Source of the DNA: a virus
Reading direction: 5' to 3' (one strand)
IMG/VR virus record: IMGVR_UViG_3300045988_119927
Length of the DNA: 60,851 bases
Under the pieces are notes generated by a model. That model worked only from the letters and a program-made list of their open reading frames with translations. It had not been told where the DNA came from and made no database searches. How positions within the stretch are numbered: the stretch's first letter is position 1; each line of letters begins with the position of its first letter. A program made the position numbers and the translations under genes. Below are positions 7,505 to 26,024 of the stretch, piece after piece.

Positions 7505-7536
7505 ATAAACCCATTGATATTTTTGGAGGTACGAAC

Positions 7537-8325
7537 ATGAACTTGAAAGCACTGACCAAAACAGCGAGGAAGACCCTCAGCCGGAACAGCTCGAAGATCT
7601 TACTGGGCTTAGGCATCGCAGGCGCGTTTACGGCGGTCGGCTTTGCCATCTCGGCAACGCCCAAGGCCATGATCCTTCTGGAGGAAAAAAAGCAGGAGCT
7701 GGGAGTCGAGAAGCTGGACGCCAAGACCATCATCAAGACGGCAGCGCCGGTGTACATCCCCACAGCCATCTCTATGGGCATCTCGACCGGCTGCATCATC
7801 GCAGCGAGCAGCGTCAACGACCGGAGAAACGCTGCGCTGGCGGCAGCTTACACCATGTCGGAGACGGCTCTGCGGAGCTTTCAGGACAAGGTCGTCGAGA
7901 CGGTCGGGCCGGAGAAGGCGAAGGAGATCAAGGAAGCTGTCGCGCTGGACAATATGGCGAAATGCCCGGAGCCGAAGAATCCTCCTGTGGCAACGCCCCA
8001 GAAGCCCGGCGTCGGCAACGACTTTTATAACGAACCGGTCAAATGCTGGGAGAGCCTTTCCGGGACATACTTTTTCACGTCCAGAAACATGCTGGAAAAA
8101 GCCGTCAACGGCGTGAACAAGCAGCTGCTCAGCGATTTCCGGGTCACCGAAAACGACCTGTTCGACTATCTGGGCATCGACCACAACAGGAACGGCGACC
8201 TTCTGGGCTGGGACACGGAAACGACTCTGGAAATCAGCACCTTCTATACATCGAAACTGGATGAGGATGGAACGCCCTGTCTTGTGCTGGATTACAGCAC
8301 TCCTCCCAAGTGGCTGGGGTATTGA
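7537..8325 (+). CDS. Membrane-anchored paralog family protein, copy 2
   Basis: ATG follows GGAGGTACGAAC. Two TM helices are followed by NDRRNAALAAAYTMSETAL. The long upstream extension in the ORF track (from 7288) is unlikely to be translated. Confidence 0.65.
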   Translation: MNLKALTKTARKTLSRNSSKILLGLGIAGAFTAVGFAISATPKAMILLEEKKQELGVEKLDAKTIIKTAAPVYIPTAISMGISTGCIIAASSVNDRRNAALAAAYTMSETALRSFQDKVVETVGPEKAKEIKEAVALDNMAKCPEPKNPPVATPQKPGVGNDFYNEPVKCWESLSGTYFFTSRNMLEKAVNGVNKQLLSDFRVTENDLFDYLGIDHNRNGDLLGWDTETTLEISTFYTSKLDEDGTPCLVLDYSTPPKWLGY

Positions 8326-8341
8326 TATTTTGAGACCCCGG

Positions 8342-8370
8342 CGCGAAAAATTCAGCTTGCTTTATGGAGG
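8342..8370 (+). promoter_or_regulatory. Class-C promoter-like element
   Basis: Sequence CGCGAAAAATTCAGCTTGCTTTATGGAGG. Confidence 0.5.
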
Positions 8371-8417
8371 TAATACTCCGACATTATAAACTTATTTATA
8401 AGAAAGAGGTAACAAAA

Positions 8418-8753
8418 ATGGACGAAATGAACAACGTGACTATGGAGAACGAGACTTCTATGATGGAGAACGCTCCTGTTGAGAACTTGGTTCCCGTTGA
8501 GGCGGAGAACTATACTTCGGACTGCGACTGTGAGAGCAATGCAAACCTCGATCTTGGCAAGATCGTCAAGATCGGCGTTGGTGCTGCGCTGCTCATCGGC
8601 GCTGGTGTGAAGTATGGCATCCCTGCTGCAAAGAAGGGTTTCAAGCACATCAAGGAGAAGATGGCCAGCAAGAAGGCGAAGAAGGACGAGGTCATCGACG
8701 TGGAGTCGACGGATGTGACTTCTGACGAGGAAACTTGTGAAGAGGAGAACTAA
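8418..8753 (+). CDS. Hypothetical acidic protein with central TM
   Basis: RBS AAGAGG is present. TM segment IVKIGVGAALLIGAGV. Confidence 0.5.
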   Translation: MDEMNNVTMENETSMMENAPVENLVPVEAENYTSDCDCESNANLDLGKIVKIGVGAALLIGAGVKYGIPAAKKGFKHIKEKMASKKAKKDEVIDVESTDVTSDEETCEEEN

Positions 8754-8768
8754 TGTCAGATAAAGCGA

Positions 8769-8807
8769 GAGCTGTAGAGAAATCTGCAGCTCTTACTTTT
8801 TTATTTT
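8769..8807 (+). terminator. Conserved-family terminator (T5)
   Basis: GAGCTGTAG-AGAAAT-CTGCAGCTC followed by TTACTTTTTTATTTT. Confidence 0.75.
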
Positions 8808-8823
8808 GAAAAGGAGAAGCATA

Positions 8824-23964: not shown

Positions 23965-24185
23965 ATGAGTCATTTGGAACTTGTACTCAGTTAGCTAGAA
24001 GGTGCGCTGTTTGTCCTAAAGTCTCTACCTGTGATCATAAAAGAATGGAGCATCTTGGATATATTATTCCAATCCCAGATCTTAATGTCAGTATTGTTGT
24101 CACAAGAGCCAATGGAAAGAGCCTCGGTCAGCTCGAAATGGTTGATTCACTGATGAAAAGGAGATTTAATTATGAAAATCATTGA
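23961..24185 (+). CDS. Hypothetical Cys-containing protein
   Basis: The ATG follows GGAGGTTTTTAC. 74 aa. Confidence 0.4.
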   Translation: MNESFGTCTQLARRCAVCPKVSTCDHKRMEHLGYIIPIPDLNVSIVVTRANGKSLGQLEMVDSLMKRRFNYENH

Positions 24186-24915
24186 ACCAAAATACGAAAT
24201 CCTCACTGATATTTCTGATGGCGGCATCAAAGAGCTTCAGCAGATCGAGCGTGTGGCGCGGGTCTGCTACAAGAGCGAGGATAAGATCACGCCGGAGGGT
24301 GAGTCGGCAAAGAAACTGGTGGGCTTTCTGGTGAAGCAGGGGCATGAGGCTATGCTGGAGCATTCGCAGCTGTCCGTGCTGTTTACCTGTGACCGGGCCA
24401 TTGCCAATGAGCTGGTGCGGCACCGCATCGCGAGCTTTGCACAGGAGAGCACCCGGTACTGCAATTATGCAGGAGAGAAGTTTGGCGGGGAACTGAGCTT
24501 TATTCGGCCGTTTTATATTCCTAACGAGCCTAATGAAAATGCAATCAACGCAGCTTCTTCGACAGAAGAATTTATAAAGCTCGAAACGGACTATCAAATC
24601 CACCATGCGTGGTACTGGGCTTGTGATGATGCTGAAAAAAGCTACAAAACTCTCATCGCCAATGGTCTCCGTCCCGAACAGGCCCGTTGTGTGTTGCCGT
24701 TGTGCCTGAAGACCGAGATCGTGGTGACTGCCAACTACCGTGAGTGGCGCAATATCTTCAAGCTGCGTACTCCTGTGGCGGCTCATCCTCAGATGCGTGA
24801 GCTGATGTGCCCGCTGCTGAAAGAGCTTCAGAGCAAGATCCCGGTGGTGTTCGATGATATTTACACGTTCTGGCCGGCGGATGACCAGACGCGGAAGGGG
24901 AGTATGGTGAAGTAA
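24172..24915 (+). CDS. thyX: Flavin-dependent thymidylate synthase
   Basis: The ThyX signature RHRIASFAQESTRY (RHRxxSxxxxSxR) is present in a 247-aa ORF. Confidence 0.9.
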   Translation: MKIIEPKYEILTDISDGGIKELQQIERVARVCYKSEDKITPEGESAKKLVGFLVKQGHEAMLEHSQLSVLFTCDRAIANELVRHRIASFAQESTRYCNYAGEKFGGELSFIRPFYIPNEPNENAINAASSTEEFIKLETDYQIHHAWYWACDDAEKSYKTLIANGLRPEQARCVLPLCLKTEIVVTANYREWRNIFKLRTPVAAHPQMRELMCPLLKELQSKIPVVFDDIYTFWPADDQTRKGSMVK

Positions 24916-24917
24916 CT

Positions 24918-25172
24918 ATGAAAAAGCATATTATTTGTTTTGTTGCATGTCTGATGATGCTTGTTGGCTGTGTGGTTCTGTGTAGCTGCGGCAACTATAA
25001 GGTGCTAAATAAGACGTTCACTTATACATGGGCGCAGATCAAGCTACCCGACGGAGCAATCATTGAGGGTAAGGTAGATAGCTGGACTGATTATGGAGAT
25101 GAACTGTTGCAAATCACGATTGATGGTACCACATATCTGGTTCATGCAGCGGATGCCGTTATGAAAACCTGA
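24918..25172 (+). CDS. Putative lipoprotein
   Basis: Signal-like N-terminus MKKHIICFVACLMMLVGCVVLCSCG. Confidence 0.5.
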   Translation: MKKHIICFVACLMMLVGCVVLCSCGNYKVLNKTFTYTWAQIKLPDGAIIEGKVDSWTDYGDELLQITIDGTTYLVHAADAVMKT

Positions 25173-25198
25173 GAGGGAAAGGATATGGTGAAGTAAGC

Positions 25199-25531
25199 AT
25201 GAAGAAAATTGACGAACGATATATTGAGGTATTAGATCAATTCGGATTCGGCTTATACACAACTACAGCTGGATGTAATCTCTATCATGATAGTTCATGG
25301 GGATCATATATTGTAAACTTTAATGGAGACGACTTTGTCGAGATGTTCATTGGTTATGCTGAAACCTTCGATCCGAATGAGTATGTAAGTTTACATATCA
25401 AGAGTCACAGGGTGATTAAAGATATTGGCGAGATGCTTAAAAGTGCAAAAGAAATTCAGATTTTGCTGTTAAAAGTAGCCATAGAATTTGTGAAAATCAG
25501 CAAAGAAAGTATGGTGAAAGCTGATGTATAA
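25199..25531 (+). CDS. Hypothetical protein (low-GC)
   Basis: 110-aa ORF. Confidence 0.5.
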   Translation: MKKIDERYIEVLDQFGFGLYTTTAGCNLYHDSSWGSYIVNFNGDDFVEMFIGYAETFDPNEYVSLHIKSHRVIKDIGEMLKSAKEIQILLLKVAIEFVKISKESMVKADV

Positions 25532-25670
25532 GGTCTTATTCACTATTGGGTTCGCTTGTCAAATCTTCTATTTCGGGAGTCGTTACGGGGTAAAACTTGA
25601 GAAAGATATTACTGAAGTCATATACTGCGTAGGTGTTGTATTGGCGCTAGCATCTTTTGCTCTGTTTTGA
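25524..25670 (+). CDS. Small membrane protein
   Basis: 48-aa ORF with two hydrophobic helices, below the ORF-track cutoff. Confidence 0.3.
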   Translation: MYKVLFTIGFACQIFYFGSRYGVKLEKDITEVIYCVGVVLALASFALF

Positions 25671-25685
25671 AAGAAGGTGATTACG

Positions 25686-26024
25686 ATGCAGAAAAGAACG
25701 TATGATTTTCTTGTAAAGATGCGGATTCCGATGGTGGGCGATGCAGTTGAAATGATGGGCGATGCAGTTGAAATGACTATTGATTTGCTCAATTCGCATC
25801 GGTCTGTTCCGATGATTGATATTTGCGCTGCGATTGCAGAGAAGTATCACACGAATGTGAAAAGCGTCACGGCTCGCCTTGTGAGAGTTGTGGATGCGAT
25901 GGAGTATCGGAGTGGGGTGTATCCTAATCCTGAAATGGAAGAGCTCCGTATTGCATTCAGACTGGATAAATGGACGCTTAAACGATTCCTGTATGCTGCG
26001 GCGAGGAGGCTTATGGGCCAATGA
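25686..26024 (+). CDS. Spo0A C-terminal (DNA-binding) domain-like protein
   Basis: ICAAIAEKYHTNVKSVTARLVRVVDAM parallels Spo0A [28 protein letters not shown]. There is no receiver domain. Confidence 0.5.
   Translation: MQKRTYDFLVKMRIPMVGDAVEMMGDAVEMTIDLLNSHRSVPMIDICAAIAEKYHTNVKSVTARLVRVVDAMEYRSGVYPNPEMEELRIAFRLDKWTLKRFLYAAARRLMGQ
25731..25772 (+). repeat. 21-bp tandem duplication inside the Spo0A_C-like gene
   Basis: ATGGTGGGCGATGCAGTTGAA / ATGATGGGCGATGCAGTTGAA, encoding MVGDAVE MMGDAVE. Confidence 0.9.

Follow-up and report, generated by a model that had tools for sequence, protein, structure and literature searches.

A strand-polar octamer in the middle genes of an Oengusvirus-like phage is a candidate initiation element for the phage RNA polymerase

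Introduction

The viral DNA of 60,851 nucleotides (nt) deposited as IMG/VR record IMGVR_UViG_3300045988_119927, which we analyzed over its full length and refer to as the window, carries multiple copies of the octamer TGATATTT, all of them on one strand. A first-pass annotation had described this octamer as a motif of the replication arm and had considered a promoter role possible. Here we examine its abundance, conservation and distribution in the window and in related phages, and tentatively propose that it is a minimal core promoter or initiator that would be read by the phage-encoded RNA polymerase (RNAP) in the middle gene class. A search of the accessible literature on TGATATTT or on polarity of its ATATT core retrieved nothing on either; only a 50-bp motif of cluster DJ phages and the helix-turn-helix (HTH) ends of the RNAP have been reported.

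Gene layout of the window

The window represents a complete or near-complete Oengusvirus-like phage of Faecalibacterium, with approximately 79% nucleotide identity to FP_oengus over the alignable parts. The + strand carries all genes except that of the integrase, and the main blocks are as follows.

185-1405, −: integrase gene
1.5-7 kb, +: small early genes
7-26 kb, +: block of replication and nucleotide-metabolism genes
12325-16326, +: helicase-polymerase fusion gene
19081-20298, +: helicase gene
24172-24915, +: thyX-like gene
26-28.4 kb: low-GC stretch rich in terminators
operon, +: endonuclease, exonuclease, RNA polymerase of 922 amino acids (aa) resembling YonO and RNA-dependent RNA polymerases (28389-31157), then an 89-aa open reading frame (ORF)
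31.7-60 kb, +: late genes

Abundance, polarity and codon choice

TGATATTT is found 38 times on the + strand of the window and not once on the − strand, its reverse complement AAATATCA being absent; this is the polarity that had been annotated, one listed position being corrected from 24217 to 24207. In 100 dinucleotide-preserving shuffles the octamer appeared 1.51 times on average and at most 5 times, both strands summed. The stretch 7515-25824 alone holds 28 copies, which agrees with the earlier count for 7.5 to 25.9 kb. When synonymous codons were permuted within each gene (500 runs), the coding sequences (CDS) of the 7-26 kb region gave 2.54 +/- 1.17 copies with a maximum of 7, versus 21 observed; the enrichment thus survives the codon shuffle that had been suggested as a check, and the two kinds of shuffle rule out codon or dinucleotide bias as its source. 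The flanks of the 38 copies (+/-40 nt) are mutually unrelated, indicating independent occurrences, and this rules out a dispersed repeat or paralogy.

The motif is not restricted to spacers close to start codons, since 25 of the 38 copies lie inside called ORFs, where codon choice follows it. The claim that Asp-Ile dipeptides are written GAT ATT holds for all 7 in the polymerase fusion and all 3 in the helicase, and for 28 of 35 in the 7-26 kb region as a whole; in the late genes the commonest pair is GAC ATC (17 of 34). Other copies are read TTG ATA TTT, with the rare ATA codon, and five lend their TGA as the stop codon of a gene. The arrangement in which the motif sits between a Shine-Dalgarno sequence (SD) and ATG was likewise found as described at 9448, 16333, 16968 and 18002. 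The individual copies are listed below.

1367-1374, +: antisense to the 5' end of the integrase gene (185-1405, −); 211 nt upstream of the first + strand gene
1596-1603, +: 10 nt into ORF 1586-1843; read TTG ATA TTT
2985-2992, +: intergenic; intrinsic terminator, 25 nt, motif, 7 nt, SD, ATG 3010
4762-4769, +: TGA is the stop codon of ORF 4624-4764
7515-7522, +: downstream of a terminator hairpin; 2 nt upstream of the GGAGG of ATG 7538
8323-8330, +: TGA is the stop of the gene ending at 8325; an E-class repeat (8342; see below) follows directly
9448-9455, +: between SD and ATG 9457
10447-10454, +: 3 nt past a stop codon; 1 nt upstream of GGAGGG
10736-10743, +: TGA is the stop of ORF 10571-10738; within 10719-11252 read CGT GAT ATT TTG
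11253-11260, +: overlaps the start codon at 11252 (A-TGATATTT)
11449-11456, +: intragenic, AAT GAT ATT TCT
11755-11762, +: intragenic; next start codon 30 nt downstream
11801-11808, +: TGA is the stop of ORF 11252-11803
11920-11927, +: intragenic, CTG ATA TTT
12516-12523, +: helicase-polymerase gene; in 8 of 72 relatives, most having GGATATTT here
12665-12672, +: polymerase gene, TTG ATA TTT with the rare ATA; kept in 69 of 72 relatives
13713-13720, +: polymerase gene, AAT GAT ATT TGC; kept in 68 of 72 relatives
14088-14095, +: polymerase gene; GATATT core invariant; 52 nt upstream of a conserved internal AAGGGAG-ATG at 14140
14715-14722, +: polymerase gene; in 34 of 72 relatives
16333-16340, +: between SD and ATG 16342
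16968-16975, +: between SD and ATG 16976
17906-17913, +: 4 nt past a stop codon
18002-18009, +: immediately followed by ATG 18010, in the same frame as ATG 18034
19350-19357, +: helicase gene, CTT GAT ATT TAC
19896-19903, +: helicase gene
19953-19960, +: helicase gene
20296-20303, +: TGA is the helicase stop codon; 8 nt into ORF 20288-20542
22230-22237, +: intragenic
23595-23602, +: intragenic
24207-24214, +: thyX-like gene
24855-24862, +: thyX-like gene; next start codon 55 nt downstream
25817-25824, +: intragenic; closes the dense block
28284-28291, +: exonuclease gene, 97 nt upstream of the RNAP start codon; a copy at this position is common among relatives
31506-31513, +: nt 2-9 of the predicted virion left end, beside cos
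31529-31536, +: nt 25-32 of the predicted virion left end, after the TTTCCCCGGAGGGAAA hairpin
58316-58323, +: intergenic, 4 nt upstream of the AGGAGG of ATG 58341
60539-60546, +: in ORF 60403-60621
60573-60580, +: in ORF 60403-60621

The octamer is sharply defined. We distinguish the point variants TGATATTC, TTATATTT and TGATAATT; among all 24 single-base variants, only TTATATTT (9:0, + to −) and TGATATTC (8:1) are mildly enriched, and some of their copies occupy positions much like those of the octamer itself.

4842-4849, +: TTATATTT; terminator, motif, 2 nt, GGAGG, ATG 4863
5631-5638, +: TTATATTT; 1 nt upstream of the GGAGG of ATG 5655
59210-59217, +: TGATATTC; terminator, motif, 4 nt, GGAGG, ATG 59234
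26164-26171, +: TGATATTC; matches a host sigma-70 promoter of the extended -10 type when paired with TTGACG at 26144 (TTGACG-17-TATTCT)

With regard to the last of these, the first-pass annotation had placed the motif-like site 17 nt after TTGACG; TGATATTC itself begins 14 nt after it, and the spacer of 17 nt is the one that runs to the hexamer TATTCT. A longer motif or upstream element was sought around the 38 copies (+/-40 nt) and in 880 distinct contexts from close relatives, and this yielded a weak S-A-W preference upstream and nothing more. No structured context was found in the flanks of the 38 copies, and the GC skew signals neither a strand switch nor an origin inside the motif block.

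Conservation in close relatives

The annotation would have been undermined if related phages lacked the motif, and they do not. FP_oengus has 33 copies on the + strand and none on the − strand in its first 50 kb; the + to − ratio is 1751:6 in the region around the polymerase gene of 80 IMG/VR relatives, and 662:5 in the region around the RNAP gene of 79 relatives. The rare minus-strand copies lie within + strand ORFs. All relatives retrieved have the one-strand gene layout, so that gene orientation never varies among them.

When 72 distinct polymerase genes with 71-98% identity to that of the window were aligned by codon, ten positions held TGATATTT in at least some sequences. At 12665 and 13713 every synonymous position is invariant while the adjoining codons vary freely; the remaining positions have been gained and lost, and where the full octamer has disappeared, the GAT ATT core mostly persists, even when a flanking T is lost. 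Immediately downstream of the polymerase gene, TGATATTT-(T)-ATG is retained with or without an SD; in many relatives the motif at this junction (16333) supplies the polymerase stop codon through its TGA, with ATG 1-2 nt later and no SD. The pattern is one of purifying selection on a nucleotide word combined with turnover, as in a motif under selection at particular sites as well as for its density overall.

The polymerase alignment also contains another frozen segment. At 14122-14142 the helicase-polymerase gene reads AAG GGA GAA A(AA) ATG, ending at Met-606, and this segment is invariant in the 72 relatives, synonymous sites included. The internal ATG (14140) falls between the part that resembles superfamily 3 (SF3) helicases (aa 113-442) and the polymerase part (aa 683-1160), which suggests an internal translation start yielding free polymerase; together with the GATATT at 14088, AAGGGAG-ATG could plausibly form an internal transcription-translation unit.

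An ATATT core in distant RNAP-bearing phages

Phages in GenBank that encode a homologue of the RNAP with 34-45% identity number approximately 250, and their hosts include Arthrobacter, Gordonia, Streptomyces, Lactococcus and Bifidobacterium, among others. These relatives all have a one-directional layout in which the RNAP gene is the penultimate gene at the right end. In several of them no word of the genome is more strand-asymmetric than the pentamer ATATT, with the following counts (+:−).

Gordonia phage Avazak: 135:2
Streptomyces phage Psst1: 80:0
Streptomyces phage Scap1: 24:0
Bifidobacterium phage BitterVaud1: 193:31
D_HF5_2C: 231:109, a weaker bias

The consensus context in these relatives is B-ATATT-Y, and the pentamer is present in all three reading frames; the CDS of Avazak contain 114 copies versus 32 ± 5 in codon shuffles. 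The opposite orientation is depleted: sense-strand AATAT occurs 2 times in Avazak CDS versus 23 ± 4 expected from codon shuffles, and is absent from both Psst1 and Scap1. By contrast with ATATT, the consensus core of sigma-70 promoters, ATAAT, shows no enrichment in the window or in the actinophage relatives.

TGATATTT is thus best regarded as the Oengusvirus form, lengthened to 8 nt, of an ATATT core that is used across host phyla. Since the same core with the same polarity is found in phages of Firmicutes and Actinobacteria, the reader of the motif must, on this evidence, be phage-encoded rather than a host factor. Where chance alone would produce so short a word, its reversed orientation is deleterious.

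Distribution by gene class and partner motifs

The RNAP gene contains no copy of TGATATTT in the window or in any of the 79 relatives, and the RNAP genes of five ATATT-type genomes together have 4 ATATT where 29 are expected. The head genes are likewise poor in TGATATTT or ATATT and have another motif, TCAAAATGG, in its place, whereas the ATATT zone of the Gordonia and Streptomyces relatives Avazak and Scap1 takes in the tail genes. In BitterVaud1 a motif-rich left end separates the motif-poor RNAP gene from the motif-poor head genes, so that the poor zones are not contiguous. The distribution therefore follows gene class, and neither replication nor distance from an end. The tie to replication proposed in the first-pass annotation is not borne out, given the empty RNAP gene in 79 relatives, the inclusion of tail genes in Gordonia and Streptomyces phages and the two copies at the virion left terminus.

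TCAAAATGG occurs 21:1 (+:−) in the window (at 37193, 38472 and 19 further sites), and was also located at 5694 of L086, at 13030 of the Avazak record and at 42050 of L001. It had been described as complementary to TGATATTT; the two do occupy largely separate positions, but they overlap between 58 kb and 6 kb. TCAAAATGG(A) is found across phyla in head and late genes, with 3-7 copies and 0 antisense copies in every relative examined, including P162 and Circum. The ATG within TCAAAATGG serves as the start codon of the protease-capsid gene not only in the window but also in FP_oengus, Avazak and Scap1, and in the window it is the start codon of the portal gene as well.

A third repeat, which we call the E class, is approximately 30 nt long and reads CGCGAAAAATTCAG-N4-CTTTATGGAGG. 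About 11 copies are present on the + strand (2241, 2500, 2618, 3236, 4571, 5088, 5588, 7173, 8342, 22397 and 27491), and its CGCGAAA segment is found 18:0. The copies lie in spacers ahead of small early genes, and that at 27491 precedes the endonuclease-exonuclease-RNAP operon. Homologous repeats are TCGCAGAAATTACACGTCCTATAATGAGACCCC in Avazak, a cluster DJ phage, GTTTTACATACCCTATAATGA in P162 and CGCGTAAATTACA in Circum, and the counterpart in cluster DJ Gordonia phages has been published as a 50-bp putative regulatory motif (PMC9671010). The geometry of the E class is not sigma-70-like, and it is likely to be a full promoter for the phage RNAP.

Window spacers repeatedly show the same order, namely an intrinsic terminator hairpin, then TGATATTT, TTATATTT, TGATATTC, TCAAAATGG or an E-class repeat, then SD and ATG. 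TGATATTT thus shares its spacer slot with the repeats that look more like promoters. In the 880 contexts, an ATG lies 0-1 nt past the motif in 17%, an SD lies 4-6 nt ahead of it in 19%, and an SD lies 1-4 nt past it in 15%.

Several other features were noted in these spacers and around them. Near-identical intrinsic terminators (GAGCCGTnGAGAAATCTGCGGCTC followed by a T run) are reused between transcription units at ~2470, ~2940, ~7480, ~8775, ~18465 and ~22835; because YonO is reported to ignore hairpin terminators, their action may be confined to the host enzyme. The phage encodes its own tRNA-Met (CAT) in a spacer downstream of a terminator (18495-18573), and a doubtful tRNA call with undefined anticodon (2524-2596) overlaps a spacer and the start of ORF 2541-2882. 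Three paralogous DUF6353/PHROG 2152 proteins of unknown function are encoded consecutively at 6230-7009, 7538-8325 and 9457-10443, the ATG at 7538 being the start of one of them by comparison with FP_oengus gp18, and homologues exist in most actinophage relatives.

The stretch 26025-28400 has a GC content of ~41%, several strong terminators, long spacers and sigma-70-like promoters, and almost no relative has a copy of TGATATTT in it. It is probably a host-transcribed entry region for the RNAP operon. The sigma-70-like promoters are the following.

26144: TTGACG-17-TATTCT, with TG
26462: TTGAGC-17-TATAAT
26765: TTAAAA-18-TATAAT

The RNA polymerase and the virion ends

The RNAP is a single chain of the YonO/RdRP-like type with a C-terminal HTH of the Sigma70_r4_2 type (aa 899-920, E value 4e-10) and two further HTH segments at its N-terminus (Myb/HTH at 99-145). 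All HTH segments are conserved in every relative, and the HTH ends were already noted in a preprint (10.1101/842583). No sigma factor is annotated in FP_oengus. For YonO itself, which is encoded by the Bacillus prophage SPbeta, the promoter sequence is undefined, and one late operon is transcribed from a single mapped start site (PMC5467207). Directly after the RNAP gene, the 89-aa ORF (31183-31452, +) belongs to PHROG 4303, of unknown function, and is kept in 7 of 7 distant relatives; its product is possibly a partner of the RNAP, as an accessory subunit or specificity factor.

Downstream of this ORF lies a non-coding block of 90 nt whose conservation exceeds 90% across 64 distinct relatives; the DNA beyond it is hypervariable with large indels. 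The first half of the block contains a hairpin, GGGGAGGGG…CCCCCTC with a TCAAAAATGG loop, and TCAAATCGCGCCGGTCT, and both elements have aligned counterparts at the physical right ends of four records, those of Circum, Scap1, Avazak and P162. Cluster DJ phages have a 9-nt 3' overhang, CGCCGCTCT, at their ends (PMC12859696). By homology with the ends of the four relatives, we infer a cos region at 31466-31504 (+) that comprises the hairpin and a putative 9-nt overhang CGCCGGTCT (31496-31504), which would put the right end of the virion DNA at ~31504. The corresponding left end reads T-TGATATTT-CCCCGGAGGGAAAA-T-TGATATTT and carries a second hairpin, TTTCCCCGGAGGGAAA, the whole region of cos and ends spanning 31466-31545. 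The pair of TGATATTT copies at this end is found in almost all of the 79 relatives (1.92 per locus), and ATATT also lies beside the left-end hairpin in Scap1, Psst1 and Avazak. A binding site for terminase (cosB) was considered for the motif and set aside, as dozens of dispersed copies would confuse packaging and only the hairpin is universal at the left end. In virion coordinates, the elements are ordered as follows.

2-28.7 kb: TCAAAATGG
31.6-37.7 kb: E class
26.8-57.6 kb: TGATATTT
last 4 kb: RNAP operon

Possible function of the octamer

These observations narrow down what may read the octamer. Since the reverse orientation is purged, the mechanism must be directional on DNA, and since the core crosses phyla, its reader must be a phage protein that is itself conserved. 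Initiation by the phage RNAP is favoured because it accounts for the directionality, the phage reader and the tie to gene class together, and it also explains the shared spacer slot. In addition, purging of antisense copies is expected for promoters, antisense transcription being costly, and is unexpected for RNA elements, Chi or primase sites. The enrichment, the polarity, the forced codon choice, the conservation of sites and of the core across phyla, the purging, the gene-class distribution and the spacer architecture are observations; from them we infer both the identity of the reader, the RNAP, and the outcome, initiation. The promoter role that had been raised as possible thus stands, and a role in transcription start is the best explanation we have reached, although as a specific claim, that of a core promoter or initiator of the middle class, we hold it only as a tentative preference that could well be wrong.

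According to this proposal, the element would work in one orientation on DNA and would be read by the YonO-like RNAP with its HTH segments of the sigma-region-4 type. The middle class would comprise the small early, replication and nucleotide-metabolism genes, with transcripts starting at or just past the motif and running rightward. Being a short word, copies would be cheap, and selection could have spread them on the sense strand at junctions and inside long genes, so that each downstream gene would be fed by many starts; where the element is just 5-7 nt long, as in the relatives, selection would have removed the antisense copies. The RNAP operon, which lies at a DNA end and by analogy with cos siphoviruses is probably injected first, may initially be expressed by the host enzyme (for example from TTGACG-17-TATTCT at 26144), from an E promoter, or from both. 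The RNAP would then start at E-class promoters and at the many TGATATTT copies for early and replication genes, and at TCAAAATGG for head and late genes, and one internal copy may serve the conserved internal start in the polymerase gene.

A further-reaching form of the same idea, which we consider rather doubtful, is that the motif constitutes a genome-wide code of strand polarity for a sigma-less YonO-like RNAP that would start at every sense copy of a word of 5-8 nt. There would be approximately 40 starts per genome here and more than 100 in the Gordonia and Bifidobacterium relatives; middle-class expression would come from many nested starts rather than from discrete promoters, and one-way readability would be ensured by sense enrichment in all three frames together with antisense purging. 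In a bolder version, the same starts could also prime discontinuous DNA synthesis, no primase catalytic domain being detectable.

Several observations weigh against the octamer being a promoter or initiator. There is no conserved sequence around it, neither an upstream element nor an initiating sequence, and it lacks the ATGR start that the E class and TCAAAATGG have in common. Most copies are intragenic and roughly evenly spread, and the excess at gene junctions is just 2-4 fold and could reflect cheap placement, with TGA serving as stop codon and tiny spacers; in Avazak and BitterVaud1 the density of ATATT, at 2-4 per kb, is high for promoters. The unease already expressed over intragenic density and strict polarity was justified, and both remain the unusual features. 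Moreover, Lactococcus phage P162 and Arthrobacter phage Circum encode the RNAP yet have no ATATT strand bias, while sharing the RNAP, polymerase, helicase, nucleases, E-class and TCAAAATGG motifs with the biased phages. A tblastn comparison of all window proteins with seven distant genomes revealed no gene whose presence tracks the bias, and the recognition helices of the RNAP HTH segments show no clear correlation with it when biased and unbiased phages are compared. Finally, antisense purging is not demonstrable in the lineage of the window, where the octamer is too rare by chance.

The same observations can be set against other functions. A signal acting during elongation on the non-template strand, through the phage RNAP or a factor riding on it (a pause, anti-arrest, ops-like loading or polar roadblock element), would sustain transcription in the sense direction while impeding movement the other way. 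It would suit an element that is short, strictly defined, orientation-dependent, dense, mainly intragenic and evenly spread, as well as the purged reverse orientation, the gene-class distribution and the lack of ATGR in TGATATTT; we nevertheless judge it unlikely, as the late, head and RNAP genes, presumably transcribed by the same enzyme, do without the motif, the slot between terminator and SD that it shares with promoter-like repeats is left unexplained, and known elements of the sort, such as ops and the T7 class II signal, number one or a few in a genome. An element of the middle-class mRNAs (UGAUAUUU or AUAUU), recognized by an endoribonuclease or an RNA-binding regulator, of phage or host origin, that controls stability or translation in the manner of RegB and RegA on T4 early mRNAs, would account for the mRNA sense of all copies, their class-specific distribution, the presence of about one third of them in translation-initiation regions on either side of the SD, and the retention of a copy beside AUG at the polymerase junction. 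With such an element there would be no rationale for purging its reverse complement from the sense strand (2 versus 23 in Avazak), and the element sits poorly with the copy at 1367, antisense to int and upstream of the first + strand gene, with the conserved pair at the left terminus, beyond the last gene of the right arm and its hairpin, and with the unstructured context, so that we find it quite improbable. The idea of a one-way terminator for the phage RNAP in the right arm was set aside, as it gives no reason for the genome-wide purging of the reversed orientation.

Functions in DNA metabolism or in host transcription have to be weighed on the same grounds. A site used on one strand, either to prime the lagging or displaced strand, possibly by the RNAP, or as a site-specific nick of the T5 type, would fit the strict polarity, the spacing of 0.3-1.5 kb (suited to Okazaki-type priming) and the copies at the DNA terminus. 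The polymerase fusion shows just SF3-helicase-like and polymerase parts, with no primase domain by structure-database match, and the RNAP operon encodes a conserved endonuclease of the VRR-NUC type along with an exonuclease resembling RecB/Cas4; breaks would result if both strands were nicked, and this could explain the purging. Yet a site of this kind should neither skip the RNAP and head genes nor be replaced there by a second motif, the poor zones of BitterVaud1 are non-contiguous, purging of the other strand is unexpected for primase sites and the GC skew of the block shows no switch or origin, which together make this function improbable. Shielding of the right arm by a Chi-like site, from an enzyme of the RecBCD/AddAB type entering linear or rolling-circle DNA at the right end, would be compatible with an octamer in a single orientation independent of genes, and virion ends at 31504/31505 place the copies mostly in the right half, where they face such an enzyme correctly under the orientation rule of lambda. 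Chi sequences are host-specific, however, while the core is common to phages of Faecalibacterium, Bifidobacterium, Gordonia and Streptomyces; copies are lacking from the RNAP gene, which makes up the 3 kb nearest the right end, reversed copies would be harmless and yet are purged, and a second motif takes over in the other arm, all of which renders Chi activity barely conceivable. The likeness to an extended -10 box, to which the first-pass annotation had drawn attention, would point to host sigma-A promoters (TGnTATTTn), and TG-N-TATTT does match the first five positions. The variant at 26164, with TTGACG at the right distance and T at -7, is the only site that fits. Where TG is at -15/-14, the -7 base of the octamer copies is unconserved (G9 C8 T12 A9), and there is no -35; TATAAT-like cores and ATAAT are not enriched in the window or the actinophage relatives, the core but not the TG is common to the host phyla, and 28 host promoters in 18 kb, mostly intragenic, would be implausible. 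We therefore regard recognition by the host sigma factor as very unlikely.

YonO-like single-chain RNAPs are widespread in phages and prophages, and no promoter has been defined for any of them; candidate recognition elements are now available in three classes (E, ~30 nt; TGATATTT/ATATT; TCAAAATGG), conserved from phages of Firmicutes to those of Actinobacteria. Several such phages can be cultured (FP_oengus and the SEA-PHAGES phages of Gordonia, Streptomyces and Arthrobacter), which makes start-site finding directly testable. If the intragenic copies are active, they would represent an unusually clear case of a regulatory word that shapes the choice of codons, and even of amino acids, throughout a genome. 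The polarity of the motif also offers a simple marker of gene class, transcription direction and physical ends in metagenomic contigs of a phage group that is abundant in the human gut.

Comparison with known systems

One of the closest likenesses is to the late promoters of T4 (TATAAATA; gp55, gp33 and the gp45 clamp), which are also exact AT-rich elements of 8 bp with no -35 and no flanking consensus, and which serve one temporal class in dozens of copies, some of them inside upstream genes. In T4, however, a sigma-like protein of the phage works with the core enzyme of the host, while the window phage has its own single-chain two-barrel RNAP; neither a gp55-like sigma nor gp33 nor a sliding-clamp activator is annotated in FP_oengus or was found among the window proteins scanned with Pfam and PHROGs, a subset of the ORFs. 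TGATATTT further differs from T4 late promoters in its higher density, its mostly intragenic location and its absolute strand polarity. The two-barrel RNAPs of jumbo phages (phiKZ, AR9) reportedly read very short AT-rich motifs near the start in a strand-specific manner, as is said to have been found by Yakunina (2015), Sokolova (2017) and Fraser (2022). The non-virion enzymes of jumbo phages are multi-subunit and their motifs lie upstream of genes, in contrast to the single 922-aa chain with sigma-r4-like HTH ends described here, and we know of no description of genome-wide sense enrichment with antisense purging for them. If TGATATTT belongs to the promoters at all, its intragenic density, absolute polarity and antisense purging set it apart from both the T4 late and the short jumbo-phage promoters.

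YonO of SPbeta belongs to the same homologous class of single-chain enzymes related to multisubunit RNAPs and to RdRPs, but it serves one late operon from a single start, whereas here the genome is tiled by three motif classes and the virion DNA has the RNAP gene at its end. The order of events in T7 is comparable in that the RNAP gene comes first, two classes of phage promoters follow for DNA-metabolism (class II) and structural (class III) genes, and all genes are on one strand; T7 promoters are 23 bp long, intergenic and 17 in number, and the enzyme is of the unrelated single-subunit family.

Among the polar oligomers that impart architecture to chromosomes, Chi and KOPS are also exact octamers with a skew to one strand, spread through CDS by synonymous choice, but they are host-specific and read by the recombination or translocation machines of the host, while the core of TGATATTT crosses phyla and follows gene class. 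The start-associated sequences of Cluster K mycobacteriophages and the 50-bp DJ motif resemble it in being short repeated sequences beside start codons in actinophage genomes; they are purely intergenic, longer and present in 5-13 copies, whereas TGATATTT/ATATT is mostly intragenic and 10-100 times more frequent.

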